The notes below the pieces were generated by a model. That model was not told where the DNA came from. It saw only the letters and a list, made by a program, of their open reading frames with translations, and did no database searches. A DNA stretch of 64,000 nt from assembly GCA_963699585.1 (NCBI GenBank), contig CAVOUK010000011.1, positions 125,231-189,230 of the forward strand. The letters are read 5' to 3'. Each line of letters opens with the position of its first letter. Within the stretch, counting starts at the first letter, position 1. Of the stretch, positions 9,341 to 37,454 are shown in pieces. The stretch comes from Thermodesulfovibrionia bacterium (GTDB lineage Bacteria; Nitrospirota; Thermodesulfovibrionia; UBA6902). Made by a program: the position numbers and the translations under genes.

Positions 9341-9366
9341 TAGGGGCGAACGGCCGTTCGCCCCTA
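9341..9366. repeat. REP-like perfect 26 bp GC-rich palindrome TAGGGGCGAACGGCCGTTCGCCCCTA
   Basis: Perfect palindrome 2 bp after the korG stop. The korA reading frame runs through it with no canonical start codon until ATG 9301. Confidence 0.8.
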
Positions 9367-9368
9367 CA

Positions 9369-9920
9369 TTAAACGAACACCTCTCGGCAATTTTTCAATG
9401 CAAAATCATACCCTGCCTGCGCCGACCTGATATTGCCCTGAACAACATCTTCACCCTTTTTGCTGAATGTATTTCTGATTGTTTCAAAGAGCGGACCCGG
9501 ATCCATGCCGAGCATCCCAAGGACCGCTCCTGTAGCAACAGTATTTGACATTATCTTATTACCGCCGTGTTCAACCGCTATGCTTTCAAAAGGGACATCC
9601 AGAAAACAGGGAGCTTCGTGCTTCTCTTTGAATGCTGATGAATCATAAATAATGGTCCCTTTTTCCGTAAGTTCTTTTTCATGCTGCGATATGCTCGCCC
9701 TGTCAAGTGCAACCACTATGTCAACCACGTCTCTTGATGCCGTAACAGGTTTGTCGGAGAATCTGATCTGATAAAAATTATGCCCGCCCCTTATGCGGGA
9801 TTCATAATCCTGATGGGTAAAGACATGAAAGCCTGATTTAGCGAACAGGTGCGCAAGAGTGTCTCCAATTGTCTGAAGCCCCTGCCCTGCCTCACCGCCT
9901 ATTTTAATTGAGTAGTCCAT
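9369..9920 (-). CDS. korG: 2-oxoacid:ferredoxin oxidoreductase gamma subunit
   Basis: 183 aa; 'IGGEAGQG' motif typical of POR/KOR gamma subunits. Confidence 0.8.
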   Translation of the reverse strand: MDYSIKIGGEAGQGLQTIGDTLAHLFAKSGFHVFTHQDYESRIRGGHNFYQIRFSDKPVTASRDVVDIVVALDRASISQHEKELTEKGTIIYDSSAFKEKHEAPCFLDVPFESIAVEHGGNKIMSNTVATGAVLGMLGMDPGPLFETIRNTFSKKGEDVVQGNIRSAQAGYDFALKNCREVFV

Positions 9921-9932
9921 ATTTCAATAGCG

Positions 9933-9953
9933 ATCAGCAATCAGCTGTCAGCA
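9933..9953. repeat. tandem heptamer array ATCAGCA-ATCAGCT-GTCAGCA
   Basis: Three tandem NTCAGCN heptamers upstream of korG; same motif family as 40057-40137 and 54485-54520. Confidence 0.55.
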
Positions 9954-10024
9954 AACACAGATGTTTTTTAGTCATGCCTGCTCTGAAGTAAAAGTTTATA
10001 AATAATGTAGGTTAAGCATAACCA

Positions 10025-10489
10025 TTACAATTTCTTTTTAAATTCACTCAGCCATCTGATATGGCTCTTCTCTTCGTTTATTATCTCGCTTAATACCCCG
10101 TCGTCTCCAATAACATCTTTTAAGCCATAATAGTAAAGCAGGGTTTCTCTCTCAAAGCCAAGTGCGAAATGGACCGCATCCTTCACTGATTTCAGATGCT
10201 CAAGCGCGGGGAGGGATTTATTCTTTCCGAGGAAAAATTCCGACTCAACTATCGCCCTTAAGTATGCTGAGACCTCTTCCGGATTTTCAATATTGCGGTC
10301 TTCCTCTTTATCTCTGAGTTCAATAAATAAATTTTCATGCTGCTGTTCCATTACCGCAAGCGCATCAAACAGGTTTTTCAACTTACTTTCTTTAGTAAAT
10401 TTCTTTGACATACCTGAGTAAAAATCATAACCGAGTTTCTCCGTCTGTACAGCCTGTTCAACAATTTCACGAACTGAGAATTTTTTCAT
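10025..10489 (-). CDS. ferritin-like / rubrerythrin-family diiron protein
   Basis: 154 aa helical protein with E...EQQH / EEKSH diiron-type motifs. Confidence 0.55.
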   Translation of the reverse strand: MKKFSVREIVEQAVQTEKLGYDFYSGMSKKFTKESKLKNLFDALAVMEQQHENLFIELRDKEEDRNIENPEEVSAYLRAIVESEFFLGKNKSLPALEHLKSVKDAVHFALGFERETLLYYYGLKDVIGDDGVLSEIINEEKSHIRWLSEFKKKL

Positions 10490-10503
10490 ATCTTCCTCCT
10501 GAT

Positions 10504-12471
10504 CTATGATTTTACATATTCTTTCTTCTTTAAAAACTTCCTGAGGATTCCGGGGTCAGTAACCGGCTCATGACATGTGTCCCTGAAACACGGGATGATA
10601 CAATCCCTGTCTTCACCGTAAATGATAGTTGTATAAGGGTTGATAAATGAGACAGCAGTCTCAGCCAGTCTGGATGACGGTGAAGCATCAAGCGTAAGCT
10701 TAAGAGAATTAAAGTATGCGTCAAGAGCGCAAAAATAATATCCTGCGTGAATACCGATATCTTTCGCCTTCGTGGAAAAAACTTTCAATGATTTTTCTGC
10801 ATATTTCAGATATTCTTCTTTTTTTGTCATAAAAGAAAGTTTAAGCAGCAGTATTATGCAGAGAGAATTTGCCGAGGGATGCGGAATGTCTTCAATACTT
10901 TTTATCTTCATTCCGAGAAGATGCTCATCTGTATCAATGAAACCGCCTTCATCCTCATCCCACAGGTTTTTTATGCATATCTCCATAATCTCATCTGCTT
11001 TCTGCAGACAGAAAAAATCGCCTGTCACTTCATACGCCGAAATCAGGGCGTCAGCAAGATATAAGTAATCATCTAATACAGCCTTTACTCCTTCAGTGTG
11101 AAAAAGCTGCTTTCCGGTAAAGTGCATTTTCATTACTCTATCAAGACTTTTCAATGCGAATTCTTTCAGTCCGTTGTCCTTTAATACTCTGTAACTCAAA
11201 AGACAGGCTGAAATGAGCATGCCGTTTATTGATGTATATAAGGTCTTATCAATAAATGGCGTCTGCCTTTCATTTCTTGATTTGAGCAATTTTGCTTTTC
11301 CGCGTTTGATCGATCCGGTAATTTCTTTTATATCTTTCCCTGTAGTTTTGGCGATCTCTTCCGCAGTCATAACAGCAAAAAGGACCCTTTTCGACCCGTC
11401 ATGGTGCATCGCCCCTGCCTTATGCATCAGATGAAGGGAGAGTATCCCGTATTCGTCTTCATCGAGTGCTTTCCTGAACTCATCGTCAGTCCATGTGAAA
11501 TATCCTCCTTCATCATCCGGAGTGACATCCGCGTCCTGACTGATATAAAATCCGCCGTCAGGGTCCGAGAGTACATCATTTATAAATTTAATTATTCCCT
11601 GTGCAACTTCCCTGTAAAATTCGTCGCCAAAAACAAAATACGCGCTTATATAATTTCTCAGCAGCCACGCGTTGTCATCCGCCATTTTTTCAAAATGCGG
11701 TATGGTCCAGGACTCATCAGTTGAATACCTGTGGAAGCCTCCGCCGATCTGGTCATAAAATCCGCCCTGTGCCATCGCTGTAAGGGTTTTTCTTATTACG
11801 AGTTCAACAGCATCACTCTGCTTGAGAAAATATCTGTTGATGAGAAATTCCAGCGCCCCCGGCATGGGGAATTTCGGGGCAGTTCCAAAGCCTCCGTTTT
11901 GAGCGTCAAATTGCGAAAGGATGTCCTGAACGGCCTGGTCCAGCAGTGGTTCGTTTATTTCCCCCTGTGCTGCTGGAGAGGTTTTCAATGCACTTATTAA
12001 TTTTTCCGTATATTGAGAGATTTCATCCCGCCTGGTCTTATAAAGCTCAAGGACCGCTCTCAACACTTTTTTAAATCCGGGCCTTCCAAGTTTGTCATCA
12101 GGAGGGAAGTAGGTCCCTCCAAAAAATGGTTTCTTGTCATGGGTCAAAAATACACTGAGAGGCCATCCTCCCCCTGAGCCCATAGCAGCAACCGCCATCT
12201 GATATCTCTTGTCTATATCAGGCCTTTCGTCCCTGTCTATTTTTATGCTTACGAAATTTTCATTGAGAAGCCCTGCTATTTCGTCATCAAAAAAACATTC
12301 CTTTGCCATCACATGACACCAATGACACCATACAGCGCCGGAACTGAGAAATAATGGTTTATTTTCCTTTTCTGCCAGTTGAAAGGCTTCCTCGGACCAT
12401 GGATACCAGTCTATTTTCTGATCGGCAGCATGTTTCAGGTAAGCTGATTTTTCTTTAGATAGCCTGTTCAT
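10504..12471 (-). CDS. thioredoxin-domain protein, DUF255/YyaL family
   Basis: 655 aa; N-terminal 'CHWCHVM' DUF255 signature followed by a long alpha/alpha-toroid-like region. Confidence 0.75.
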   Translation of the reverse strand: MNRLSKEKSAYLKHAADQKIDWYPWSEEAFQLAEKENKPLFLSSGAVWCHWCHVMAKECFFDDEIAGLLNENFVSIKIDRDERPDIDKRYQMAVAAMGSGGGWPLSVFLTHDKKPFFGGTYFPPDDKLGRPGFKKVLRAVLELYKTRRDEISQYTEKLISALKTSPAAQGEINEPLLDQAVQDILSQFDAQNGGFGTAPKFPMPGALEFLINRYFLKQSDAVELVIRKTLTAMAQGGFYDQIGGGFHRYSTDESWTIPHFEKMADDNAWLLRNYISAYFVFGDEFYREVAQGIIKFINDVLSDPDGGFYISQDADVTPDDEGGYFTWTDDEFRKALDEDEYGILSLHLMHKAGAMHHDGSKRVLFAVMTAEEIAKTTGKDIKEITGSIKRGKAKLLKSRNERQTPFIDKTLYTSINGMLISACLLSYRVLKDNGLKEFALKSLDRVMKMHFTGKQLFHTEGVKAVLDDYLYLADALISAYEVTGDFFCLQKADEIMEICIKNLWDEDEGGFIDTDEHLLGMKIKSIEDIPHPSANSLCIILLLKLSFMTKKEEYLKYAEKSLKVFSTKAKDIGIHAGYYFCALDAYFNSLKLTLDASPSSRLAETAVSFINPYTTIIYGEDRDCIIPCFRDTCHEPVTDPGILRKFLKKKEYVKS

Positions 12472-12871
12472 TCATACAAACAACTACTGAATCTTCAGTC
12501 CCGAATTTATTTGGAACATATCTTTCGGCAAACCAGTCATTTTCCCAACGGTTGGAGTCAACAAGATATCTGAATCTGTATTCCCTGTTACAGGCAAGGT
12601 CCAGAGTTAAAGTGAAATCGCCGTTCTTCAGTTTTTTCATCCTGTTTTCAGTCATATTCCAGTTATTAAAATCACCGACGATAGTGACCATCTCAGCGTC
12701 CTTCGCAGCTTCCTTGGGCAGCCTGAATGTGACCTTGCAAATATTGTCTGATTTCAAATACTGTTTTTTCAGACTTTTTGTCTCAGCGGTTGTTTTAGGT
12801 TTAACAGTCAATTTCTTTTTCACAGGCGCAGCAGCAGCGCTGTGTGCCTTTTTCTCGATAGGTTTTTTCAT
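12455..12871 (-). CDS. CBM48 / AMPK-beta glycogen-binding-domain protein
   Basis: 138 aa; Lys/Ala-rich N-terminus then 'VTFRL...VTIVGDFNNW...FTLTLDL...YRFRYLVD' (isoamylase N-domain-like). 17 bp overlap with the upstream gene. Confidence 0.5.
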   Translation of the reverse strand: MKKPIEKKAHSAAAAPVKKKLTVKPKTTAETKSLKKQYLKSDNICKVTFRLPKEAAKDAEMVTIVGDFNNWNMTENRMKKLKNGDFTLTLDLACNREYRFRYLVDSNRWENDWFAERYVPNKFGTEDSVVVCMNEQAI

Positions 12872-12937
12872 TTTACCCCTCCATCCTGCATTTACAGGAT
12901 TTATTGCCTTTAGTTTATTTCTTATTTTATACAGCTG

Positions 12938-13783
12938 TCATATCTGTTTGATAACATTATACTTGCTGTTGAGTAAATTGCCAAGTCTTAAGAGATGTTT
13001 TTTCTCCTCTTCAGCAAGAAGGTCAAATATTTTCTGTGTATCTTTATTTTCCAGTTTATTAAATATTTTCAAATAGAGATCGAGTGAATTGGTCTCAAGC
13101 TGGATGGAAAATTCAAGGATATCAGTGAGATCTCTTTTACTTTCATTCAGCCATTTCATGGCTTCATCCATCGATAAGCCGCCCTCTATTGTGCCGGATA
13201 AATGTTCTTCTCCATATTTGCCGTTTTCAATACCCATTCCTTTAATGTGCATATATTCCTGAACAAGTGTCTCCTTGTGTTTTTCCTCTGCTTTGACCAG
13301 AGAAGCGAACACACCTTTTGATTCCTCATCTGCTACCGCATCTTTCACACTCTCATAAAATCTGCGGGTCCCGTCTTCAAGAGACCACGCCATTGTAATG
13401 AATTCCTCTGTTGTCTTTCTTCCTTCAATTAAGTACATCCCGGACTCATACTGTCCTGTAGCTTTCAGACCGTTCCATGCATCAATTCCGCCTTTAACAC
13501 TGTACACTTTATCAAACCCCTGCCCTTTTAATAACGACGCAGCCGACCTGCTGCGTACCCCTCTTTGTCAATATGTGATTATAGTCCTGGAAGGGTCCAA
13601 TTCCTTCATTTTATCCGGGATGCCTGACATTGGCATCAGGACAGCTCCGGGGAGATGCTCCGCTTCATATTCCTTTGGTTCACGGACATCAAGCAATACT
13701 GCATTTTTATTCTCAGAAAGCAACTGCTTTGCCTCATCAGGGCTTACCGTATCAACTCTGTTAAAAATATCTGTCAGCTTCAT
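12938..13783 (-). CDS. candidate selenoprotein: rhodanese-domain / ferritin-like (rubrerythrin-type) fusion with in-frame UGA (Sec) at 13568-13570
   Basis: ORFs 13568-13783 (rhodanese N-half ending '...TIITY') and 12938-13507 share one frame, separated only by TGA. Read through it gives 'TIITY-U-QRGVRS...VYSVKGGIDAWNG', i.e. TGA at the catalytic-Cys position of the rhodanese CX5R loop. A hairpin lies 11 nt downstream (separate feature). Confidence 0.55.
13530..13560 (-). promoter_or_regulatory. SECIS-like stem-loop downstream of in-frame UGA
   Basis: mRNA: UGA-caaagaggggu-ACGCAGC-AGGUCG-GCUGCGU. 7 bp stem, apical loop with GGU, starting 11 nt after UGA; resembles the E. coli fdhF SECIS upper hairpin (GCAGGUCUGC). 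Confidence 0.5.
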
Positions 13784-13865
13784 TTAACCCTGTTTATTAC
13801 CATAAGTTACTGACAGCATTATCATTGCAATCACCATTACTCTCATTCTCTTCCATTGATTTAAA

Positions 13866-14117
13866 TTATTTTCCTGCAAAGTTCTTTATGAACTCGCTTA
13901 TCTGAAAACCAAGCGGAATACATTTTATCCCGTCCATACATTCGTCGGCGTCTTTTTTCTCAAGATGCGTTACGAGTCTGTGTGAATTTTTCTCAAGTTT
14001 AATATCATATGTTTTCAATTGCCGGTTAAAATCAAGACTGACAGAGATGCCCTGCTGTTCGATCTCAGGATACATCTCCATTATCTTGTCCTTCAATGCA
14101 ACATTCGTATAACCCAT
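13866..14117 (-). CDS. hypothetical small protein (83 aa)
   Basis: Strong RBS AAAGGAGGAG before the ATG; family not recognised. Confidence 0.5.
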   Translation of the reverse strand: MGYTNVALKDKIMEMYPEIEQQGISVSLDFNRQLKTYDIKLEKNSHRLVTHLEKKDADECMDGIKCIPLGFQISEFIKNFAGK

Positions 14118-14132
14118 TTTCTCCTCCTTTGG

Positions 14133-14188
14133 TAGGGGCGAGGCGCTGCCTCGCCATTCTTATTGGGCGACCCATCGGGTCGCCCCTA
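14133..14188. repeat. REP-like compound GC-rich palindrome (TAGGGGCGAGGC-GCT-GCCTCGCC ... GGGCGACCC-ATC-GGGTCGCCCCTA)
   Basis: Two nested hairpins bounded by TAGGGG/CCCCTA, intergenic between 13866-14117 and 14216-14701. Confidence 0.75.
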
Positions 14189-14215
14189 TGAGCTTTTAAA
14201 TCACGCCGACGGTGT

Positions 14216-14701
14216 TCAGCCTTCCACTATGCTGTGCTCATCCCACATGAACCAGTTCCCTGTATCCATTAAAAAATTATATGTATTTTCAAAGATGGCG
14301 TAATGCTGTTCTTCTTCACTGATCAGCTTCTGAAAAAGCGTCTTTTCCTTCTCTGTTTTTGCTTCTGTCATAAGTTTTCTGTAGAATTCGATACCTTCTT
14401 TCTCCATCTGCATGGCAATCTTGAACGCCTCCAGTTCGTCGGCAGTAGCCCGGACTTTCTCCATCATTTTGTCTTTCATAGTCTCAAAAACTGTTTTGAT
14501 GTTATTCATGGGGTGAACATCGTCCATCTGAATTTCGAGTCCCTGCAGAAGCTTGTTGACTATTGCAAGGTGGCGTTTTTCATCTACGACTATGGTCTCG
14601 AACATCTTTTTACCGGCAGGATATTGCGTCCTGCCTGCTGCTTCAGTGTAAAACCTTATAGCGTCCGTCTCCATCTTCCTGGCTATTTCAATTGCATTCA
14701 T
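14216..14701 (-). CDS. rubrerythrin-like diiron protein (no rubredoxin domain)
   Basis: 161 aa; paired 'E..H' ferritin-like motifs (DEKRHLAI, EEEQHYAIFE). Confidence 0.65.
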   Translation of the reverse strand: MNAIEIARKMETDAIRFYTEAAGRTQYPAGKKMFETIVVDEKRHLAIVNKLLQGLEIQMDDVHPMNNIKTVFETMKDKMMEKVRATADELEAFKIAMQMEKEGIEFYRKLMTEAKTEKEKTLFQKLISEEEQHYAIFENTYNFLMDTGNWFMWDEHSIVEG

Positions 14702-14746
14702 TATTAACCCCTTTGTTTTGGGCCAACAGCTGCGCTATTGACTGTT

Positions 14747-15244
14747 TTATTGATATATTTTCACAAGTTTTAATCTTAATTTCTTAAGATACTCAACGTG
14801 CTTAACTTCCTGTTCCATCATTTCCCTGAAAATAACCCTGGCATTCGTGTCGTTCGCATCCTGAGATAATTTATGATAAAGATTGTACGCCTTGCCCTCT
14901 ATCTCCATCGCTAATGTCAGGGCCCCCATTTCGTCCTTAATTGCATATTTTTCAATTTTTGCCTCAAGGTCTTTTACAGGGATCCCTGCTTCTGTAAACG
15001 GGGCTTCTGCTCCGCTGCTGAATTCCTCAAAGCTTTTTATCCCCTGTTCTTCGTTTATTGACTGGTATAAATACTGAATGAAATCCATGTGTTTTTTTTC
15101 CCAGTCCGCGAGCTCCAGAAATATTTTCTTTGCATCACTGCTGCTCGATTTCACGGATGCATCATTATAGAACTCTTTTGTCCCTTTTTCCATGAGAAAT
15201 GCTTCAATAAGCGACTGCAGTAAATTTTCTTTACCGGTGATCAT
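14747..15244 (-). CDS. ferritin-like / rubrerythrin-family protein
   Basis: 165 aa; 'EKKHMDFIQYL', 'EQEVKHVEYLKKL' motifs. Confidence 0.6.
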   Translation of the reverse strand: MITGKENLLQSLIEAFLMEKGTKEFYNDASVKSSSSDAKKIFLELADWEKKHMDFIQYLYQSINEEQGIKSFEEFSSGAEAPFTEAGIPVKDLEAKIEKYAIKDEMGALTLAMEIEGKAYNLYHKLSQDANDTNARVIFREMMEQEVKHVEYLKKLRLKLVKIYQ

Positions 15245-15267
15245 TAATGTTTAATTCTCCTTTCTGA

Positions 15268-15693
15268 TTATTTTCCACCAGTGTCAGCATAAAGGTCATA
15301 TAATGCCTTTCCGATAAAAAAATCTCCCCACGCGATCCCTATATCCGGCAGGGTTGATTTGAGAAACCATTCTCCTGCCGGTACAGCCTTTGCGGTAAAT
15401 TCAGCAATGCTGTAATGGGCCATGAAAACAGTGCCATAGATAACGATCATGCCGTTCAAAAGATACCCGTAAACACATGTTTTTCTCGATGTAAAAAGAG
15501 CTGTAACCGCTACTACATCGATGACAGGAAAAATGAACGAAAGAAATCTTGTGCTGTCAAACCTCACAATTTCAGGATTAATCTTATCATGGACCATGAA
15601 ACCATGAATTCTGTAATGAAGGAGTAATCCGGAAACAGCAAGGAGAAAAAGTGCTGTCAATAGTGCTCTTTTAGCATTCATAATTATGATCAA
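15268..15693 (-). CDS. hypothetical integral membrane protein (TTG start)
   Basis: 141 aa, 4 predicted TM helices; TTG start overlaps the stop of the upstream small ORF (TTGA). Confidence 0.5.
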   Translation of the reverse strand: MIIIMNAKRALLTALFLLAVSGLLLHYRIHGFMVHDKINPEIVRFDSTRFLSFIFPVIDVVAVTALFTSRKTCVYGYLLNGMIVIYGTVFMAHYSIAEFTAKAVPAGEWFLKSTLPDIGIAWGDFFIGKALYDLYADTGGK

Positions 15694-15794
15694 AATACAA
15701 ATTTAGCTATATGCCCCAGATATAAAGTCAGGCTTACCATAATGATATGGAGAATCCACCAGCCAGGCCTGTATCGCATAAAATATTTCAGCAT
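15690..15794 (-). CDS. small hydrophobic peptide (34 aa) MLKYFMRYRPGWWILHIIMVSLTLYLGHIAKFVF
   Basis: Below the ORF-track cutoff. Shares 'RPGWWI(L/I)H...Y.LGH' with the adjacent 39 aa ORF; stop overlaps the start of 15268-15693. Confidence 0.45.
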   Translation of the reverse strand: MLKYFMRYRPGWWILHIIMVSLTLYLGHIAKFVF

Positions 15795-15795
15795 T

Positions 15796-15915
15796 TCAAC
15801 TCCATAGAAAATGTCCGAGTGTATACACCGTTGCTATTCCCAGAAGGTGGATTATCCACCATCCGGGCCTTAGAAAACCTATTCTGTTTCTGTTGAAAAT
15901 TTTTTTTCTCTCCAT
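15796..15915 (-). CDS. small hydrophobic peptide (39 aa) MERKKIFNRNRIGFLRPGWWIIHLLGIATVYTLGHFLWS, paralog of 15690-15794
   Basis: Tandem paralogous small ORFs, TGAAATG junction; conserved RPGWW motif. Confidence 0.45.
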   Translation of the reverse strand: MERKKIFNRNRIGFLRPGWWIIHLLGIATVYTLGHFLWS

Positions 15916-16159
15916 CTAAGTCCTCCCGAAGCCTTCTTATGATTCAACGTTACGAACTTTCTCAGACATATGGCATTAAAAAAAATCAACTTCTAAAAAA
16001 ATATTATCACATACGGTGAGAATGTCAACTGCCGGATCTCTTGACCGGAAAAGAGATTCGAACGCAGCATTAAATAAAAAAAACACATTTATGGAGCATT
16101 AACTCCATAAATGTGTTCATGATGTTTCCTGCCTGTAAGCTCTATTGGTATTTTTCAGC

Positions 16160-16408
16160 CTATTCCAGTATTTCAAGGACACAACGCTTGCCGAGTTTGG
16201 ATCCGGCTGCGCTCAGTATGGTCCTTATTGCTCTTGCTGTATTCCCCTGTTTGCCTATGACTTTCCCGATATCATTTGTAGCAACACGCAGTTCAAAGAC
16301 AACAGTCCGTTCTCCATCAATCTCAGATACTACAACCTCCTCAGGCGAATCTACCAGAGACTTTGCAATTAATTCAACAAGTGTTTTCATATCTACCTCC
16401 ATAAGCAT
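16160..16408 (-). CDS. KH-domain RNA-binding protein (YlqC/UPF0109-like)
   Basis: 82 aa; '[16 protein letters not shown]' KH GXXG motif. Confidence 0.7.
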
Positions 16409-16659
16409 TCGGGCTGCTTCATGCAGGCCCTGTTTAAAAGTTTACTTACAACGTTAGCTGGTTGTGCTCCGCATCCAATTCAGTATTTCTGATATGTGAT
16501 ACATATTATCATAACAGCATAAATATTCAAACAATAATTCATACTGTATATATCGCTGTTGATTTGACCCTGTTGTTTTCTCTGACTGATTTCATCAGAC
16601 TGTTCTGCTCCTGTCTTGACTGTCTATGGCTGAAATATATCTTTAAAATGATTTGAATT

Positions 16660-17601: not shown

Positions 17602-17861
17602 ATTGTCTCCCTTTATATTTTAGAAAAAATAAATGATATATTAACATAATCTCATTATTCTGAAAATATATTTTATCCCGTCAGATTTCATAATTACTAA
17701 TTAAAAGGTATAAACTTTCATGTCTTTAATTGAAATTTACCTATAACTCTATTTATCCGTCAATTATTCATTACTCATTCATCATTATTAATTATTTTCA
17801 GTATATTGACGGAGATTTATAAAACGGGTAATATAAACGGATAATTTATCCAATGAAAATT

Positions 17862-19245: not shown

Positions 19246-20272
19246 GTGAATATGTTAAAGAAAAAGGACAAGTATGTGGTTGCCGTTGTCGGCGCCACAG
19301 GAGCAGTCGGCAATGAAATGGTTGCAGTTCTTGAGGAAAGAAATTTCCCGGTAGAAAAACTCAGGCTTTTTGCATCCGAACGTTCAGAAGGCAAGATCAT
19401 GAACTTCAATGACAAGCCTGTAACTGTTGAGATACTCACAGAGAAGGTTTTCAAGGGTATAGACATCGCCCTTTTTTCTGCGGGTGCAGAGAGAAGCCTT
19501 CACTATGCCCCGATCGCTGCAAAAGCCGGGTGTGTTGTTGTTGACAACTCAAGCGCCTGGAGGATGGACCCTAAGGTGCCGCTGGTGGTCCCGGAAGTAA
19601 ATCCGCATGATCTTGAATGGCACAAGGGAATAATAGCAAATCCGAACTGTTCCACCATACAGATGGTCGTTGTTCTGAAACCAATTCACGATGCGGCACA
19701 GATAAAGAGGGTTGTTGTTACAACATTCCAGTCTGTTTCAGGCACCGGTAAAAAAGCAATGGATGAGCTTTTAAACCAGACTTCGGACCTACTCAACTTT
19801 AAAGAACCCAAACCGCTTGTGTATCCTCATCAGATCGCCTTCAACTGTCTTCCTCAAATAGACAAGTTTATGGACGATGGTTATACAAAAGAAGAGATCA
19901 AGATGGTAAACGAAACCAAAAAGATCATGGGTGATGATTCAATAAAGGTCACTGCTACTACTGTCAGAGTGCCGGTCTTCAGAGGGCATTCAGAGGCGCT
20001 CAATATCGAGACACAAAAGAAGCTCACTGCAAATGAGGTAAGGGCCCTGCTTTCCAAAGCGCCCGGCGTCATTGTTTACGATGTTCCTGAAAAAAATGTA
20101 TATCCGCTTCGCCACTCTATGCGCCGGAAAAGATGAAGTCTATGCAGGCAGGATAAGAGAGGACAACACAATTGAGAACGGCATCAATATGTGGATAGCC
20201 GCTGATAACCTGAGAAAAGGCGCTGCCACAAACGCAGTGCAGATCGCAGAAACATTGATAAAGATGGCGTGA
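19246..20272 (+). CDS. asd: aspartate-semialdehyde dehydrogenase with one apparent +1 frameshift (~20103)
   Basis: ORF 19246-20136 matches Asd and ends prematurely. The C-terminus '[14 protein letters not shown]...[15 protein letters not shown]' continues in the next frame (ORF 20072-20272). Deleting one base in 'ccgc' restores it. Confidence 0.75.
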
Positions 20273-20276
20273 ATCA

Positions 20277-20338
20277 GGGGTAAGGATTATAGGGGTAGGT
20301 GTTAGGAGTCTGATGTAGGGGCGAGGCGGGCCTCGCCC
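20277..20338. repeat. 3'-end composite repeat: GGGGTAAGGATTATAGGGGTAGG + REP-like hairpin GTAGGGGCGAGGCGGGCCTCGCCC
   Basis: First part recurs at 54094-54127; second is a REP-family hairpin (stem GGGCGAGGC/GCCTCGCCC). Confidence 0.7.
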
Positions 20339-23400: not shown

Positions 23401-23644
23401 TTGTTATCTCCTTTCTTTTTGCTCGAAGCGCTGCGAATTCGGTGCGATGTTATAATTTGCAGATTAATAAATTATGGGACCACCTCCTTTCACTGCTTCT
23501 TTTCAGTCAGCCTTCTTTTTGAATCTCCGGACATGTTTCTTTTTTCGCTTGCGATTTGAATAGTAAGAGCAATTTGATTGCCACTTTTATGGATGGAGAG
23601 GACAAATTCGCATGTCCCCTGTCTGGATAAGTTACCTTTGATAA

Positions 23645-23845
23645 CTACTCTTCGCGCTTCCCCGTACGCCTCTTGTCTTCAAATATCGATGACGCCTGTT
23701 TCAGTAATGCGGATTTCCAGTTCTTAATCTGGTTGGGATGAAGGTTGTATTGTGCCGCCAGCTCGGTCAAGCTTTTCTTCCCGCAAATTAATTCTGTGAC
23801 GACCTTTGCCTTAAACGACCCGGCATATGTTTTGCGATTTTTCAT
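23645..23845 (-). mobile_element. IS3-family transposase OrfA (HTH) remnant
   Basis: 66 aa 'KAKVVTELICGKKSLTELAAQYNLHPNQIKNWKS' matches IS3/IS911 OrfA N-terminus; no OrfB follows. Confidence 0.6.
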
Positions 23846-24008
23846 TATTCCGTAACTTAATCACCGGGAGAAAAATGTGTTTCCAGGTCATTCCCGGTAT
23901 ATTTTCTTGCTGATATCTTCTTAGCCCGGGGCGAAACTTTTTCCCGTGCCGTAGAAAATTTTTCCTGTTTTACCGATTAATTTAGAGTAGCAGTTGAACG
24001 TGACCGAA

Positions 24009-29095: not shown

Positions 29096-29214
29096 CTATA
29101 CACTCCTTTAAAATGCAAAAATGCTTAAAAAGGGATTCGTTATCATTCCTTCTCAAGAAATCATTTCATATTGCCGAAGAGAACGACAAACAATAAACTC
29201 AACAGGAGGCAATT

Positions 29215-29622: not shown

Positions 29623-29721
29623 CCAGTGAGAAAGTGTGAAAGCTCGTAAGCGCGGAAGTGAAGCAAGAAGGCTGGCAAGCCTGCAAGCTGGTGAGCTGAC
29701 TAGCGGGGAAGCCCGTAAGCG

Positions 29722-30657
29722 CTAAGACAATGCGTTTAATGTCTCTTGCAGACTCTTTGCATCCTCAACATTAAAGATCCTCACATTTCCCTCTATCCTC
29801 TTTATAAGCCCGGACAAGACTTTTTTAGGTCCGACCTCTATAAATGTATCAACCCCGCTTCCAACCATGACCTTTACAGAATCTTCCCATAAAAGAGGTT
29901 GATTAAGCTGACGGACCAGTGATTCCTTGATCTCCCGAGGATCTTTTAAAAAGGCAGCGTCAGCATTATTCACAATCGGAATTTGTGCCGGATGCAACGG
30001 GGTGTTATTCAGCAATACCGCGAGTCTTTCCGATGCTCCCTTCATAAGGGTGCAGTGTGAAGGCACAGACACGGCAAGCGGAATCGCCCGTTTTGCTCCT
30101 GCATTTTTTGCAAGTTCTATCGCCTCTTCAACGGCATTCTTTTCACCCGCAATAACTGTCTGTCCGGGACAATTATAATTTGCAGGAGCTGCGTAACCGG
30201 ACCGGACTGAAGCGCATACTTTAACTATCGCTTCTCTTTCGAGTCCTATAATTGCGGCCATCAAACCTTTGCCTTCCGGCACCGCCTCCTGCATATATTG
30301 CCCTCTTTTCTCCGTGATCTTCACTGCGTCTGCAAATGGAATAACGCCTGCAGCAGTTACAGCGGTATATTCGCCGAGGCTGTGGCCCGCTATGCAAAAA
30401 GGGGTGATGCCTTTTGCAGAGAGGACCTTAAATGCAGCATAACCGGCAGTAAGAAGACACGGCTGTGTCCTGAAGGTTTTATTCAGTTCATTCTCAGGCC
30501 CGTTGAAACTGAGTCCGGCAACATCATAACCCAAAGCGTCAGATGCTGTTCTGTATATTTCTTTTACTTCCTCAAAATTATCATATAGATCTTTTCCCAT
30601 TCCGACATGCTGCGACCCCTGACCGGGGAAGACAAAGGCAATTTTCATTTTGATCAT
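29722..30657 (-). CDS. fabD: malonyl-CoA:ACP transacylase
   Basis: 311 aa; 'FVFPGQGSQ', 'GHSLGEYTA' active-site motifs. Confidence 0.9.
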   Translation of the reverse strand: MIKMKIAFVFPGQGSQHVGMGKDLYDNFEEVKEIYRTASDALGYDVAGLSFNGPENELNKTFRTQPCLLTAGYAAFKVLSAKGITPFCIAGHSLGEYTAVTAAGVIPFADAVKITEKRGQYMQEAVPEGKGLMAAIIGLEREAIVKVCASVRSGYAAPANYNCPGQTVIAGEKNAVEEAIELAKNAGAKRAIPLAVSVPSHCTLMKGASERLAVLLNNTPLHPAQIPIVNNADAAFLKDPREIKESLVRQLNQPLLWEDSVKVMVGSGVDTFIEVGPKKVLSGLIKRIEGNVRIFNVEDAKSLQETLNALS

Positions 30658-30744
30658 GACCTCCTGAAATAATAAGACTGCCTGAAAATTATACCTTTTG
30701 TTTTAGCCTAAATCAACGAATCGGCCTTGACAGCAAAAGCGCGG

Positions 30745-30840
30745 AAGTGAAGAAGCGCGGAAGCCTGGAAGTGTAGGAGTCATCCGTTGCTTCATCACTT
30801 CATCACTTCATCACTTCTTCGCTTCAGCACTTAACAGGTT
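30745..30840. repeat. intergenic repeat block (gcgcggaagtgaag x2, aagcctggaag, CATCACTT x4)
   Basis: Direct and inverted short repeats; 'gcgcggaagtgaag' also at 29651-29664 and 'aagcctgcaagc' relatives at 29676-29689, 50205-50222, 54145-54160. Confidence 0.55.
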
Positions 30841-30997
30841 TTTTGGCCATGGCTTGCTCCAAATAATAATTTACAAATAAACCGGGCTAATGTAATGCGT
30901 CATTTTAGCCGAATAATCATATATATGAAGCAAGTATCTCCTTATCGATACTATATTAATTTATTAAACAAAATGGTCAGGACGGTACAATAATTTT

Positions 30998-31648
30998 ATG
31001 TTAGTCAGATATTTCATGACTCCCGAAATAATTACGCTTTCTCCTGAACAAGGATGTCTTGAAGCATTACATTATCTCAAGAGACATCACATCCGGAGGG
31101 CCCCGGTACTGAAAAACGATCAGCTTGTTGGAATGATAAGTGAGCGGGACCTGTATCGCGTTCTTCCGCGAACACTTTTACAGGCCTCCCAGGAAGGTGA
31201 AGCAAGTATAAATATATCTGTTAAGGATGTTATGACAACTCATGTCCAGGTTGTAAGTCCAAACGATCACCTGGAAACGGCTGCGTTCCTGATGCTTAAA
31301 CACAAGATCGGGGCCATGCCTGTTGTAAAGGACGGACAAATTAAAGGGCTTATCACTGAATCGGATATTTTCAAAGCCATGTGGAACATCCTTTCCCACA
31401 AGACCAGCTGTCGCATACTATTTTTTGATAAAGACCAGGATACGGACAAAGAGCCAAACGATTACATAGAATTGTGTTTAAGGCATCATTGCGTGGTCCA
31501 GACCTTTTTATCATGCCCCAAACCGGATGGCGGATATATGCACTACCTCTGCGTCCAGGGAACAGGCATTGATAACCTTATTAACGATCTATGGTCTCAT
31601 TCCTGCGAAGTCATTATTGTAGAGAAAGGCACTAATACAAAAGATTAG
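30998..31648 (+). CDS. CBS-pair domain protein with C-terminal Cys/His-rich domain
   Basis: 216 aa; two CBS motifs ('PVLKNDQLVGMISERDL', 'MPVVKDGQIKGLITESDI'). Confidence 0.7.
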   Translation: MLVRYFMTPEIITLSPEQGCLEALHYLKRHHIRRAPVLKNDQLVGMISERDLYRVLPRTLLQASQEGEASINISVKDVMTTHVQVVSPNDHLETAAFLMLKHKIGAMPVVKDGQIKGLITESDIFKAMWNILSHKTSCRILFFDKDQDTDKEPNDYIELCLRHHCVVQTFLSCPKPDGGYMHYLCVQGTGIDNLINDLWSHSCEVIIVEKGTNTKD

Positions 31649-31659
31649 CTGAAAGAACG

Positions 31660-32856
31660 TTAAATCCCTTTTATTTCCTTTATCTTCCTGGTCAGCATCG
31701 GTACTATCTCAAACAGGTCTCCGACAATGCCATAAGTCGCAACATTGAAGATCGGGGCTTCAGGATTCTTATTGATGGCAATTATTATGTCTGATGACTG
31801 CATGCCGACAAGGTGCTGGACTGCCCCTGAAATGCCGCAGGCAAAATATATTTTTGGATTGACCGTTTTGCCGGTCTGCCCGACCTGATGACTGTATGAA
31901 ATCCATCCTTCGTCAACAGCAGCCCTTGATGCGCCCACAACTCCGTTTAATGCCAGTGCAAGCTCTTCAAGCAATTTAAAACCTTTTTCTCCAACTCCCC
32001 TTCCGCCTGCAACGATAATTTCTGCCTCATGAAGGTTCACGCTGATCCCGGAAACTTCCTTGACCGAATCTGTTACTTTTGTCCTTGAAGAAATGTTATC
32101 CATTTGTACATTGAGAATTTCGCCTGTCCTGTTTTCATCATAAGTGCCCCGCTTCATCACGCGCGGCCTGACGGTTGCCATCTGAGGACGATAATCAGGA
32201 CAGAGGATCGTTGCCATTATATTGCCGCCGAATGCCGGACGCACCTGAAGAAGATTTTTAGTCTCTTTATCTATCTCAAGTGAAGTGCAGTCTGCTGTCA
32301 GGCCTGTTCTGAGCCGTGCTGCGACTCTTGGGATAAACGATCTTCCTACCGGTGTCGCTCCAGCAAGGACAATGGATGGCTTCTGTTCATTGATCACCCT
32401 GGTGAGGATATCGGCATAGGGACCATCGTTAAATTTAATCAACTCAGAATCACTGCACAGGTAAACCCTGTCAGCGCCCCATTTGATAAGTTCCTTTGCT
32501 TCCGATTCATCAGCGCCGAGCATCACAGCCAGCAGCTTTGTGCCGAGTTCATCAGCAAGCCTTCTGCCGATCCCGAGAAGCTCAATAGAAACCGGGGCCG
32601 CCTTCCCTTCCCTCTGTTCTGCAAAAACAAGCACGTCTTTATAATCTTCAAGCTGACTGCTGAAAGCTGAACGCTGAACGCTTTCTTCTGTCTCGTATAT
32701 CGCTCCCTCAGGACATACCGATATGCATGTCTTGCAGTAATTACAATATTCATTGATAAATGCCTTCCCCTCTTTCATCACAATAGCGTCAAACGGACAG
32801 GAGCTTAAACAGGTTTCACACCCTGAACACTTTTCAATTCTGACAACTATAGACAT
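31660..32856 (-). CDS. etfA: electron transfer flavoprotein alpha subunit with N-terminal 2x[4Fe-4S] ferredoxin domain
   Basis: 398 aa; '[12 protein letters not shown]' and '[12 protein letters not shown]' ferredoxin motifs followed by EtfA FAD-binding region. Confidence 0.8.
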
Positions 32857-32884
32857 TAGTATTCCCTCTTCATTCGCCTTAGGC

Positions 32885-33667
32885 TCATATGCATTTGATA
32901 TTCCTCAGTTCAGTAATTAAGGCATTTACCTGTTCTTCCGGTGCGCCTTCAATAATTTTCCTCTCTGCCTTTATCTGGGGAGCAAAGATATTCTTGACCT
33001 GTGTGGGTGAACCTTTTAATCCGAGATTGTTCTCGTCGGCCTCTATTTCAGCCTTGCCCATCTTTTTTATTACGGCCTTTTTAGCAGCCATCTTCCCTTT
33101 TAACGAAGGCATCCTCGGCTGGTTCAATTCTTTTACTGCCGTGAGTAATACCGGAAGAGAAGATTCCACGATATCGTATCCTTCATCCATGAGTCTCTGC
33201 ACCCTGATATAATTATCTTTAACTTCTTCAACTTTTCTTATGTATGAAATATGCGGAATACCTAAAAATTCCGCTGTCTCAGGGCCCACCTGTGCGGTAT
33301 CACCGTCAATAGCCTGCTTGCCGCAGAAGATAATGTCAGCGCCGAGCTTCTTTATCGCCTGTGCAAGTGTATATGAAGTCGCCCATGTATCGGAGCCCGC
33401 AAAAGCCCTGTCTGAAAGAAGCACCGCCTCATCAGCTCCCATGGAGATCGTTTCTCTGAGGGCTGTTTCCGCCTGCGGCGGCCCCATGGTAAGAACGGTG
33501 ACCTTGCCGCCAAGCTGCTCCCTTATCTGAATTGCCGCCTCAAGGGCGTGAAGGTCAAAAGGATTGATGATGCTCGGGACCCCTTCCCTCATAAGGGTGT
33601 TTGTCTCCGGATTGATCTTTATCTCCGCTGTATCCGGGACCTGTTTTATGCATACTATGATGTTCAT
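32885..33667 (-). CDS. etfB: electron transfer flavoprotein beta subunit
   Basis: 260 aa; 'MNIIVCIKQVPD' EtfB N-terminus. Confidence 0.85.
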   Translation of the reverse strand: MNIIVCIKQVPDTAEIKINPETNTLMREGVPSIINPFDLHALEAAIQIREQLGGKVTVLTMGPPQAETALRETISMGADEAVLLSDRAFAGSDTWATSYTLAQAIKKLGADIIFCGKQAIDGDTAQVGPETAEFLGIPHISYIRKVEEVKDNYIRVQRLMDEGYDIVESSLPVLLTAVKELNQPRMPSLKGKMAAKKAVIKKMGKAEIEADENNLGLKGSPTQVKNIFAPQIKAERKIIEGAPEEQVNALITELRNIKCI

Positions 33668-33848
33668 TTATTTCTCCAGAACATTTATTTAATAATGACA
33701 AAATAAAACAATAACAAAAAACTACAGGAAATTATACGACCAGAATTGGTGTGTATTATACGATATTAAATTTAGTTAGGTCTACCCTGACAGAAAAGTC
33801 GCAAAAGGGAATCCTGAACTAATCGGGGGAAGATCACAATAATGTGTC

Positions 33849-35903
33849 TTAGCTGCGCAATTCGGCGTTAAGTGTGTTTTTGAGTCTCTCGACGATAGTG
33901 GAGTGCAGGGAATCAACCTCTTCGTCAGTCAAGGTCCTGTCAGCGGCCCTGTAACGAATGGAAAAGGCGAGGCTCTTTTTGTCTTCAGGAATTGGTTTCC
34001 CTGTATAAATATCAAATAATGTTACTGCTTCAATGAGATTTGAAGCAACACCCGATATTTCCCTGTTCACCTGTTCAACCAACACCTCATTTGAAACTAT
34101 TATTGCGACATCTCTTTCAACATAAGGGAATTTCGGCAATGACACAAACGTTGTTCCGGATGATACATGTTCAAGTAATTTCTCTAAATCGTAAATTTCA
34201 AGTATGGTCAGGCTGCCTTTAATGTCAAATGACTCCGAGACGCGGGGATGGATTGTACCGAGTGAGCCTGTCTTCTCTCCATTTACAATTATGTTGCACG
34301 ATTTGCCCGGGTGAAGGTATGGCTCTATCGAAGACATATCCTGTACTAAATGGTATTGTTTTATTTTTAAGTCCCTGAAAAGATTTTCGAGTACGCCTTT
34401 TAGATCATAGAAACCGTCATGTTTGTTTTCCCATAACATTGCTGACTTATTATTATTAGAGATTGCAGCCATCTGAACGATTTCATTCGGCAGTTTCCGG
34501 TCCGAGGGAAGAAAGACCCTCGACACCTCAAAAAAACTGATATCTTTTTCTCCACGGTTCAGATTTAAACTTACATTATTGAGCAAAGCCGGTATCAGAC
34601 TGGTCCTCATCGCTGATTCCTCTTTTCTCAAAGGATTTTTTATGAAAACCAGATTTCTTCTTTTATCATCAGACGGTAAATTTAATTTATCAAGTGTGTC
34701 AGGCTTGAAGAAACTGTAATTTATCGCTTCTGAAAATCCTGACCTTATCATGGAATTTTTTGTGGTCCTGATCATGTCCTGCCGTTTATTTACAGGAGCA
34801 GGCTGCATCTTGATGCACGGCAGCGTGGCAGGAATTTTATCGTAACCGTAAAGTCTTGCAAGTTCCTCTATTACATCCATATCTCTCTGGATATCCTGTC
34901 TGAAGCCTGGAGGAGTTACAATATACCCCTCCCCTTCCCTTTTAGTTTCAAAGCCAAGGCTGTTCAATATTTTTTGAACAGATGATTCTTTAATTTCAAT
35001 ACCGAGGAGTGAATTTATCTTTTCAGTCCTGATAAATATTTTTTTAAGCTCATAAGGCTCCGGATAAATATCGGTCAGGTTTGAAACCCTCCCTCCCGCA
35101 ATTTCAGCGATCATTTGCGCGGCCCTGTCAAGCGCCTTTGCAACATTGTCTATATCAACTCCTCTTTCAAATCTGTATGAAGACTCGGAAGTAATATTCA
35201 GCGCCTTGGATGTTCTCCTTATTGAAGCAGGATGGAAATATGCGCTTTCAATAAGTACGTTGACCGTTGATAAAGAAACTTCGGTGTTCTGTCCGCCCAT
35301 GACCCCGGCTAAAGCAACAGGCTTTTCCGCATCCCATATCAGCAGCATATCTTTGCTTAATTTTCTGTCTTCATCATCAAGTGTACGGAAGCTTATTTCC
35401 GGACCTGCTGTCTTGACCACAATTTTCTGTTCAGTAAGTTTATCGAGGTCAAAGGCATGGAGGGGCTGCCCCATTTCCAGAAGTACATAGTTGGTAACGT
35501 CAACTATGTTATACGAAGCCCTGAACCCATGAGACTCAAGACGTTTAATAAGCCATGCAGGGGAAGGAGCAGGTTTCACGCCGGAAATTGTCCTTGACGC
35601 ATATCTTTTACAAAGCCGGGAATCTTTTATCTCAATTTCAGGACCTCTGCCTTCCTGTTTCAGTACGTCAATTGATATAGCTTTAAAAGGAACTTCCAGG
35701 ATCGCTGATATTTCACGGGCAATTCCTTTAATGCATAGACAGTCGGGCCTGTTTGGAGTTACATTGATATCAAGTAAGGTATCACCTTCGATATCTTCCA
35801 TACCTTCAACTTCAAAACCTGCCATGGTAAGGGCGTGGGCCAATTCCTTTGGCGAAAGTTTAAAATCTGCAAATTCCCTGAGCCATTTGTAAGACGCCTT
35901 CAA
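33849..35903 (-). CDS. pheT: phenylalanine--tRNA ligase beta subunit (short form, lacks N-terminal tRNA-binding OB domain)
   Basis: 684 aa, TTG start; B3/4, B5, FDX-ACB domains recognisable. Confidence 0.9.
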   Translation of the reverse strand: MKASYKWLREFADFKLSPKELAHALTMAGFEVEGMEDIEGDTLLDINVTPNRPDCLCIKGIAREISAILEVPFKAISIDVLKQEGRGPEIEIKDSRLCKRYASRTISGVKPAPSPAWLIKRLESHGFRASYNIVDVTNYVLLEMGQPLHAFDLDKLTEQKIVVKTAGPEISFRTLDDEDRKLSKDMLLIWDAEKPVALAGVMGGQNTEVSLSTVNVLIESAYFHPASIRRTSKALNITSESSYRFERGVDIDNVAKALDRAAQMIAEIAGGRVSNLTDIYPEPYELKKIFIRTEKINSLLGIEIKESSVQKILNSLGFETKREGEGYIVTPPGFRQDIQRDMDVIEELARLYGYDKIPATLPCIKMQPAPVNKRQDMIRTTKNSMIRSGFSEAINYSFFKPDTLDKLNLPSDDKRRNLVFIKNPLRKEESAMRTSLIPALLNNVSLNLNRGEKDISFFEVSRVFLPSDRKLPNEIVQMAAISNNNKSAMLWENKHDGFYDLKGVLENLFRDLKIKQYHLVQDMSSIEPYLHPGKSCNIIVNGEKTGSLGTIHPRVSESFDIKGSLTILEIYDLEKLLEHVSSGTTFVSLPKFPYVERDVAIIVSNEVLVEQVNREISGVASNLIEAVTLFDIYTGKPIPEDKKSLAFSIRYRAADRTLTDEEVDSLHSTIVERLKNTLNAELRS

Positions 35904-35919
35904 CTAAATCTCCTAATTT

Positions 35920-35975
35920 GTAGGGGCAATCCCCTGTGGTTGCCCTGAATAAGGGCGGGTTAAAACCCGCCCCTA
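35920..35975. repeat. REP-like GC-rich palindrome (GTAGGGGC ... GGGCGGGTT-AA-AACCCGCCCCTAC)
   Basis: Fills the pheS-pheT intergenic gap; bounded by GTAGGGG/CCCCTAC. Confidence 0.75.
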
Positions 35976-36992
35976 CTAAAACTGTTCCAGAAACCTTTTA
36001 TCGTTTTCGTAAAACAATCTGATATCATCAATGCCGTATTTGAGCATCGCAACACGTTCTATGCCCATCCCAAACGCAAAGCCGGTATATTGTTCAGGAT
36101 CGTATCCGGCCATTTCGAATACTCTCGGATTGATCATGCCGGCGCCGAGTATCTCCAGCCAGCCGGTTTTTTTACAAACATTACATCCCGCGCCTTTGCA
36201 AATGACGCAGGATATGTCAATCTCTGCGCTCGGTTCAGTAAACGGGAAAAAGCTCGGCCTGAAACGTAATTTTGTGTCAGGCCCGAACACCATATGAATA
36301 AAGACTTCCAGAACTCCCTTCAGGTCGCTCATTGCGATATTCCTGTCGACCATAAAACCTTCAAGCTGGTGGAACATCGGTATATGAGTTACGTCGGCAT
36401 CGCATCTGTATACCTTTCCCGGTGCGATAACTCTTAACGGCGGGGCATTTTTTTCCATGACACGCACTTGAACGGATGAAGTATGTGTTCTTAATACAAC
36501 ATCTTCTGAAATATAAAAAGTATCCTGCATATCTCTCGCGGGATGGTCCCTGGGCATATTAAGGGCTTCGAAATTATAAAAATCGAGTTCAACCTCGGGT
36601 CCTTCCTCGACATGGAACCCTAATGAACTGAATATGCCGATGATCTCATCAAGGACCTGTGTTGTGGGGTGAAGACGTCCGTTTGGTATATAGAATCCGG
36701 GGACGGTAACGTCAATGCGCTGCGTTTGGAGGGTCCTGTTTAATTCAAGGGTCTTGAAAGCTGCTTCATGTCTGGCAAGCAGGTCCTCAATGTAGATTTT
36801 TGCTTCATTAAGGATTTGCCCGTATTCGCGCCTGTCTTCCTGGGGAATTGAACCGAGGGATTTTAATTTGCCGGTAAGAATACCTTTTTTGCCAAGGTAT
36901 TTTATTTTTAAATCCTGAATTGATCTAAGGCTATCAGTTTTTTCTATTTCCTCCCCGGCAAGGTCCTTTATGGATTGGATGTCATTGAGCAT
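35976..36992 (-). CDS. pheS: phenylalanine--tRNA ligase alpha subunit
   Basis: 338 aa; class II aaRS motifs; 11 bp overlap with rplT. Confidence 0.9.
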
Positions 36993-37341
36993 TCCCTTTT
37001 TTAACCATTTCTACAAGGCTGTTGAAGGCCTGCGGATTGCTGTAAGCCATATCTGCAAGGGCTTTCCTGTTTAATGCAATATCCTGCTTTTTGAGTTTAT
37101 TCATGAATTGACTGTAAGACATTCCAAGGGCCCTGACTGCCGCATTGATCCTGATGATCCATAAGGACCTGAAATCTCTTTTCTTCAACCTTCTGTCTTT
37201 ATAGGCATAAGTCAATGCCTTATCAACCGCCTCTGTTGCGATCCTGTACAGACGGCTCTTGGACCCGTAATAGCCTTTTGTCATCTGGAGAATCTTCTTT
37301 CTTCTCCTTCTTGTTTTAAAACCACCTTTTGCTCTTGGCAT
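36982..37341 (-). CDS. rplT: 50S ribosomal protein L20
   Basis: 119 aa, '[16 protein letters not shown]...'. Confidence 0.9.
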
Positions 37342-37382
37342 TTATACTTACCTCCTGAATTAGCTTTTTAAATTCTTTTTAT

Positions 37383-37454
37383 GTCATTCCTGCGAAAGTG
37401 TAGGGGCAATTCATGAATTGTCCCTACTGGATTCCGCATCAAGTGCGGAATGAC
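37383..37454. repeat. REP-like nested palindrome (GTCATTCC ... GTAGGGGCAATTCA|TGAATTGTCCCTAC ... GGAATGAC)
   Basis: In the rpmI-rplT intergenic region; inner near-perfect 28 bp palindrome starting GTAGGGG, outer 8 bp inverted repeats. Confidence 0.7.

Follow-up and report, generated by a model that had tools for sequence, protein, structure and literature searches.

The stretch of DNA analysed here (the window; 64,000 nt of contig CAVOUK010000011.1, positions 125,231 to 189,230, from the Thermodesulfovibrionia bacterium assembly GCA_963699585.1, phylum Nitrospirota) carries five loci with short GC-rich hairpins, which a preliminary description had singled out as a dispersed family resembling repetitive extragenic palindromes (REPs). 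All five are present, with slight corrections to their coordinates, and four of them are intergenic. Copy A lies where korG and korA meet, copy B is flanked by a rubrerythrin gene and an open reading frame (ORF) of 83 amino acids, copy C is found downstream of asd, 28 nt ahead of the start of the next gene, copy D fills the spacer between pheS and pheT, and copy E sits in the spacer between rpmI and rplT. The names given earlier to the neighbouring genes hold, as Pfam confirmed POR, POR_N, pheS, pheT and L20, with rpmI recognized from its ORF translation. The hairpins and the repeat that encloses one of them are as follows.

Copy A, 9340-9367, no strand assigned: perfect 28-bp double-foot palindrome GTAGGGGCGAACGGCCGTTCGCCCCTAC, made of GTAG-GGGCGAACGG and CCGTTCGCCC-CTAC; -23.9 kcal/mol, z -5.1.
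Copy B unit 1, 14132-14155, plus strand: foot GTAG and hairpin GGCGAGGC-GCT-GCCTCGCC.
Copy B unit 2, 14165-14189, minus strand (inverted): foot ATAG and hairpin GGGCGACCC-GAT-GGGTCGCCC.
Copy C, 20315-20338, plus strand: single canonical unit, foot GTAG and GGGCGAGGC-GG-GCCTCGCCC.
Copy D unit 1, 35920-35945, plus strand: foot GTAG and GGGCAA-TCCCCTGTGG-TTGCCC, with a large loop.
Copy D unit 2, 35953-35976, minus strand (inverted): foot GTAG and GGGCGGGTT-TT-AACCCGCCC.
Copy E, 37400-37427, no strand assigned: 28-bp double-foot REP GTAGGGGCAATTCATGAATTGTCCCTAC, one position of which is mismatched.
Enclosing inverted repeat from another family, 37383-37454, no strand assigned: GTCATTCC...GGAATGAC in the rpmI-rplT spacer, with copy E nested inside.

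What the five loci have in common is a GC-rich hairpin preceded by the foot GTAGGGGC[GA]A. This element occurs in three forms, namely as a single unit (C), as inverted dimers with the feet outside (B and D), and as 28-bp double-foot palindromes of the type GTAG...CTAC (A and E), so that the five loci comprise 7 hairpin units. Copy A had been reported as a perfect palindrome of 26 bp; its perfection stands, but its length is 28 bp. The two hairpins of copy B (14132-14189), located at 14137-14155 and 14165-14185 with a 9-nt spacer between them and the feet GTAG and CTAT on the outside, had been taken for nested ones, when in fact they stand side by side as inverted units, as do those of copy D (35920-35976), a 57-nt feet-outside dimer with a 7-nt spacer. 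Nesting does apply to copy E, but only in the sense that a repeat of another family encloses it. The immediate surroundings of the copies vary: the foot of D unit 2 shares its G with the TAG stop codon of pheS, C follows a stop codon, B and D come just before ribosome-binding sites, E lies within another palindromic element, and A is read in frame in a tolerant protein linker.

In the window, the motif TAGGGGCRA has 8 matches against 0.82 expected, a number that none of 100 shuffles reached. By comparison, bare GTAGGGG is only weakly enriched (8 versus 3.6 expected), and GTAGGGGCGA with 2 mismatches allowed shows no enrichment in the window (31 versus 30.5 expected). As the looser motifs are little or not enriched, the signal resides in the exact 9-10 nt foot. 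Folded as RNA, all five loci are strongly structured, with energies from -18.5 to -35.3 kcal/mol and z-scores from -3.2 to -5.5. A scan of the window for GC-rich perfect hairpins revealed no additional family copy, a half-site at 2112-2121 falls in the final codons of an ORF and has no inverted partner, and an Rfam search of the window at the gathering score returned three tRNAs only.

The sequences are not restricted to this window. The pattern GTAGGGGCRA-N(4-34)-TYGCCCCTAC, scanned in one genome per species, has at least 125 matches in at least 119 loci. The raw count is uninformative, with about a hundred matches expected by chance; it is the form of the matches that is informative. Among the matches listed, 93 of the 125 are exactly 28 nt long (chance, 1 in 31) and 68 are perfect palindromes (chance, 1 in 256), and they are scattered over more than 25 phyla, among them cyanobacteria, Chloroflexota, Bacteroidota, Desulfobacterota, Planctomycetota, Nitrospirota, Patescibacteria and Omnitrophota. 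The dominant centres among them are TTCATGAA (29 matches), CGCATGCG (9), GGCATGCC (6), AAAATTTT (6) and ACGGCCGT (4); the 28-mer of copy A recurs identically in 4 other genomes of the matches listed, and copy E is one base off the commonest allele found elsewhere among them. The large-loop unit of the D unit 1 type recurs in L065, L066, L103, L050 and L039, which represent several phyla, and dimers like those of B and D are also found in L036, L050, L110 and L119. The same scan of viral contigs gave a similar picture among the matches listed; a tblastn search of 120 viral loci with RAYT proteins (RAYT, REP-associated tyrosine transposase) found no such gene.

The genome loci were chosen by the palindrome alone, and the ORFs of the 119 listed loci were then clustered. 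In 6 of these 119, a RAYT-like gene has the palindrome inside it or within 200 nt, or both. The family matches Y1_Tnp in Pfam, its best NCBIfam match is REP_Tyr_transpos (REP-associated tyrosine transposase), and its best match in the PDB is 4ER8, TnpA_REP of E. coli; the proteins of the six loci contain the motifs PNH[IF]H, WQ and YIxNNP, which are those of TnpA_REP subclass 2.4. Homologue searches returned about 8000 proteins each, under the JGI name 'REP element-mobilizing transposase RayT'. With a query that contained the peptide encoded by the palindrome, most homologues carry the palindrome in a loop after the HuH motif, where it is translated as VGANGRSPL, VGATGRSPL or VGAIHELPL, or in another frame as RGDRPVAPT. 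Because that query was biased by its palindrome peptide, the search was redone with a query without it; the palindrome was then missing from the nearest ~35 homologues, and of the ~80 that come next the majority have repeats of the VGAIHELPL type or derived from it. The same sequences thus flank and interrupt RAYT genes in other genomes, which further backs the REP-like reading of the preliminary description.

Many of the RAYT homologues P0174, P0127, P0175 and P0303-P0337 have expanded loops of repeated half-palindrome peptides (VGANGNSPLTHT three times; IHELPIHELP...; DNVDNVDNV), from which it appears that the REP within the gene seeds tandem expansions. The internal palindrome of the RAYT genes and the wide spread over phyla were considered as possible novelties and rejected, both having been described before (Quentin 2018; PMC6006769).

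Contigs of close relatives allowed the copies to be followed site by site. These were retrieved as contigs encoding an identical L20 protein, and others were obtained via the 83-amino-acid ORF; strain M, represented by L201 and L206, is 92-97% identical to the window in nucleotide sequence and is the only relative compared base by base. It has 5 loci in 38 kb. Site D is occupied by the dimer in the window, L200 and L203, and in L204 the element is enlarged; L201 and L202 lack it and have a 16-nt spacer (ttTAGattgaaggagatttagTTG) instead. The dimer at site B is also present in strain M (L206), with GCAG instead of ATAG as the foot of unit 2, and is absent from L207. At site C, strain M has GGGCGACCC-GCC-GGGTCGCCC (stem top GACCC-GCC-GGGTC) directly at the asd stop codon, the foot supplying the TAG; in the window, asd ends with TGA, which is followed by 45 extra bases and then by a unit with a GAGGC/GCCTC top.

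45-nt stretch, 20270-20314, plus strand: joins the asd TGA to copy C, absent from strain M, with the loose repeats aggggtaagg and ataggggtaggtg.

Copy E is perfect in L200 and L202, has both feet changed to GCAG...CTGC in L201 and L203, and has no 28-mer counterpart in L205, which has an intact dimer of the GGAATGAC type instead. Site A exists as three alleles, ACGGCCGT in the window, TTCATGAA in L206 and GCAGGGGCGGTCCATGGACCGCCCCTGC in L208, of which those of the window and L208 are perfectly symmetrical and that of L206 deviates in one foot only. Strain M also has an extra GTAG hairpin after a hemerythrin gene, which the window lacks. Family copies are thus gained, lost or changed between close strains. 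Across 80 more distant pheS loci (637 kb, PheS identity 54-79%), the foot is not above chance.

Subclass 2.4 of TnpA_REP, which equals RAYT group 4, has the motifs NH[IFV]H, WQ and YIxNNP and is hosted by cyanobacteria, Bacteroidetes and various other phyla; its REPs are of a 'canonical long' form, in which the bottom of the stem consists of three G-C pairs, and a 'double foot' form, whose 5' end is GT[AG]G and whose 3' end is C[TC]AC (Quentin 2018; PMC6006769). In the window, the foot is GTAG at A (on both strands), B unit 1, C, D unit 1, D unit 2 and E, and ATAG at B unit 2. A base of three G-C pairs (GGGC...GCCC) is present in 6 of the 7 stems, the exception being B unit 1, where the perfect stem GGCGAGGC...GCCTCGCC starts one base later and its base has two G-C pairs. 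Copy C and the units of B and D correspond to the canonical long form, A (perfect) and E (one mismatch) to the double-foot form, and B and D are feet-outside inverted doublets, of which D was gained or lost as a whole.

Taken together, we consider it probable that all five loci represent a GTAG-footed REP family of the type that belongs to TnpA_REP subclass 2.4 / RAYT group 4. The proposal that they form a dispersed REP-like family is supported by the shared GTAG foot and GGGC stem base, by the single, dimeric and double-foot forms, and by the turnover between strains. We infer that a RAYT encoded elsewhere in this genome would bind the folded single-stranded hairpin, that the GTAG foot would guide the cutting and rejoining of DNA, by analogy with the TnpA_REP enzymes of E. 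coli, Stenotrophomonas and Marinomonas, and that these reactions would spread or replace the non-autonomous copies. Any effect on the host may be a side effect, for which protection of the upstream mRNA and, where a hairpin abuts a stop codon, damped translation termination are candidates.

Several observations weigh against this interpretation. The RAYT proteins of the six loci score 64-70 bits, below the curated NCBIfam cut-off of 80. There is no subclass 2.4 RAYT in the 64-kb window, where tblastn with the RAYT proteins matched only the palindrome itself, and none in 90 related loci (the contigs of the relatives and the 80 more distant pheS loci). The Y1 genes nearby are limited to those of L202, which belong to another type and have gggtcaagtcttgcatcttg repeats on their flanks instead of the GTAGGGGC foot. 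Matches to the strict pattern look few per complete chromosome, 1-2 among the matches listed, an estimate that is itself uncertain. All five loci are confined to 9-38 kb of the window, and the junction of D lacks a clean insertion signature, its filled and empty alleles also differing by 2 nt beside the element.

The Y1 transposase genes of L202 (9044-10355) are two in number and of another RAYT-like type (PLRIEYxGAxYHV...NHYHLI), with no counterpart in the window; the protein of one of them scores above the NCBIfam REP_Tyr_transpos cut-off, with 98 bits.

Since sites A, C and E have different tops or feet in close strains, resident REPs of this class might be renewed or swapped in place, and not only inserted and lost, a reading that we put forward tentatively and regard as doubtful. 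Such renewal could proceed by RAYT-mediated strand exchange between two feet or by conversion from other copies, and template switching or conversion could also explain the mirrored character of the changes. If in-place renewal does occur, close strains would hold a natural record of how REPs turn over. In any case, the copies that are present or absent and those with swapped alleles provide natural data, if only a small set, on the turnover of REPs in an uncultured lineage.

The mirrored changes raise a broader alternative, namely that the family is spread and renewed without a dedicated transposase, by template switching at quasi-palindromes, by short-homology conversion, or by an RNA-mediated route of the kind reportedly once proposed for small dispersed repeats of cyanobacteria. 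In nearly all allele differences, a change in one arm is indeed matched in the other, and this holds for the centre and the feet as well (GTAG/CTAC to GCAG/CTGC); different perfect palindromes occupy one site in close strains. This alternative would also accommodate the nesting of E in another element, the short loose repeats adjoining C, and the lack of a subclass 2.4 RAYT near any copy in this lineage. Template switching, however, can restore symmetry but cannot seed a new site such as D, and the tight association with RAYT genes elsewhere, combined with the published link to subclass 2.4, makes an origin of this kind unnecessary. We therefore consider it unlikely.

We judge it less likely still that the hairpins are structural RNAs selected by the host, such as terminators, attenuators or mRNA-stabilizing 3' hairpins, alike only by convergence. 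What speaks for such RNAs is the strong RNA folding of all five loci, the position of D abutting, and of C following, stop codons, and the T-rich runs that come after one strand of B and after the extra copy of strain M. Yet no T-run accompanies A, B, D or E in the transcribed direction, and hence no U-run on the sense strand as expected of intrinsic terminators; C is followed only by UUUAAUAUU. Moreover, D and E lie inside the rpmI-rplT-pheS-pheT cluster and A lies inside a coding linker, that is, within operons or an ORF, and D and B are missing in close relatives with the same flanking genes. The copies have in common an exact foot of 9-10 nt, which goes beyond the sharing of GC-rich stems, and identical 28-mers recur in unrelated contexts, with more than 25 phyla among the matches listed. 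Given the lack of T-runs and the positions within operons, these are not intrinsic terminators of the typical kind.

Finally, it is extremely improbable that a dimeric DNA-binding regulator uses the perfect 28-bp palindromes as operators. The dyad symmetry of A and E is nearly perfect, with conserved outer halves, but the sites lie after genes, between cistrons or in an ORF and not at promoters, the centre varies freely, the dyads of B, C and D do not take that form, and the presence and sequence of the copies vary between strains.

Copy A deserves separate treatment, because it had been suggested that its insertion displaced or created the translation start of korA. This idea does not hold. 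Homologues at 70-90% identity mostly have the gamma and alpha parts of this 2-oxoacid:ferredoxin oxidoreductase fused, with a linker of the form ...CSFS-AAPLAKPK-MLIAG..., and comparison of the korG-korA junctions in relatives showed that in L206 and L208 the reading frame continues through the palindrome. Thus, copy A is a translated linker between the domains of a fused gamma-alpha gene on the minus strand, read as VGANGRSPL in the alpha frame, and not a start-site module. Relative to L206 and L208, the window differs by a single base.

Extra base, 9385, minus strand: G on the coding strand relative to L206 and L208, which shifts gamma and alpha out of frame.

With base 9385 removed, the window reads ...KNCQRCSFNVGANGRSPLLLIAGVEAIALGAMASG..., and it is this base that accounts for the apparent korG stop codon at 9369-9371 and for a korA that lacks a start. 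An assembly error is the probable source of the extra base. The alpha part (window 8150-9400, minus strand) falls into three frames, with breaks near 8530 and 8420; the second of these is within a short AT-rich repeat (aatttcaaat...), at which strain M holds a different insert. The asd gene of the window is likewise split by a 1-nt insertion at ~20105-20115 (YPL|RHSM... as opposed to YPLPTLCAG in strain M), asd of strain M is split at another place, and related long-read contigs are split elsewhere too. Given this asd insertion and the differently placed splits in the contigs of relatives, assembly indels are the simplest reading. A truly decaying korA pseudogene, although possible, was set aside, because the frameshift in asd makes an assembly error the simpler explanation. 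What makes such decay conceivable is that no beta-subunit gene (korB, TPP_enzyme_C) comes after korA in the window or in strain M; such a gene does follow korA in L209 and L330.

The linker of L209 (1753-1800) holds a decayed 28-mer that matches at 17 of its 28 positions, and that of L330 (3334-3380) reads GTCGGACCCCTAAC (VGPL...), possibly resembling two collapsed feet. To judge from their sequences, these linkers suggest that site A holds either what remains of an old REP or a target that resembles a foot. The annotation is accordingly corrected to one fused gene, in place of korG and korA, with a REP-derived linker that is translated.

The region contains other repeats and variable segments. 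The GTCATTCC...GGAATGAC family, which encloses copy E, is found in the rpmI-rplT or pheS-pheT spacers of this lineage and of relatives whose PheS is 65-75% identical; in the same operon spacers of L205, L126 and L122, such elements are present with no 28-mer. In the window, GGAATGAC is weakly enriched (6 versus 2.4 expected), and its occurrence at 23887 was rejected as a further copy of this outer family because it forms no hairpin. A third type of short repeat, with the words AGCTGWCAGC and GCTGATAGC, forms an 87-nt palindrome by tRNA-Val (40057-40143), where strain M has an unrelated AT-rich sequence, and similar words also occur upstream of korG (9925-9962) and at site B in L207. The segment 21718-29127 spans ~7.4 kb in the window and ~1.5 kb in strain M; it codes for an EF-hand protein, a histidine kinase plus a response regulator, a DUF2846 protein and a Phd/ParE toxin-antitoxin pair. 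GC content reaches 0.53 at 24-26 kb, and the untranslated stretch 23460-23860 resembles the remnant of a transposase. Exact-protein look-ups for pheS, korG, the 154-amino-acid rubrerythrin-like protein and P0002 gave no match.

A search of the literature for the DNA strings and the encoded peptides returned nothing relevant. The small dispersed repeats (SDR) of Nostocaceae, reportedly described by Elhai et al. in 2008, are said to be 21-27 nt long, to insert into one another, to be associated with short tandem repeats and to show compensatory changes, and an RNA intermediate is said to have been proposed for them. By description, the hairpins studied here resemble them in being very short, in nesting, in adjoining tandem repeats and in changing in a compensatory manner.

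With the REP/BIME of E. coli (4ER8) and the REPINs of Pseudomonas they share the GTAG guide 5' of the hairpin, the inverted doublets and a related HuH/Y1 enzyme. In contrast, the REPs of E. coli are imperfect and bulged, belong to subclass 2.2 and reach up to hundreds of copies per genome, and the enzymes found here in other genomes are only distantly related to E. coli TnpA_REP (E = 0.013 to 4ER8). In vitro, cutting and rejoining are known for the TnpA_REP of E. coli, Stenotrophomonas and Marinomonas, GTAG guides cleavage at CT, and a second group of REPs is perfectly palindromic (Corneloup 2021; PMC8266576).

The GTAG REP superfamily (Di Nocera 2013; PMC3733652) includes feet-outside dimers, GYAG variants of the foot, feet that supply TAG stop codons, and intragenic REPs. 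Our family agrees with it in the GTAG foot with GYAG variants, in head-head dimers a few bases apart, in sub-families with alternative complementary stem residues, in REPs located within genes, be it in linkers or at termini, and in the use of the foot as a TAG stop codon, as at site C of strain M. The large-loop unit 1 of copy D resembles the large-loop family GTAG-15. The window sequences have no match among the supplementary sequences of that paper, so the likeness to its numbered families is by description only; furthermore, the foot is described there as unpaired, whereas in A and E both feet pair together.

The closest agreement is with the subclass 2.4 REPs of Quentin (2018; PMC6006769), which have the same GT[AG]G foot, the same stem base of three G-C pairs, the double-foot form and a similar scatter over many phyla, and for which insertions inside tnpA_REP have already been described. 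The foot, the double-foot form, the link to RAYT and the copies within genes are therefore already published, and this is no new kind of system. Two differences stand out: Nitrospirota is not among the host phyla that Quentin (2018) emphasizes, and one and the same site here holds different hairpin tops in close strains, these strain-level allele swaps being the only part that might merit more study.

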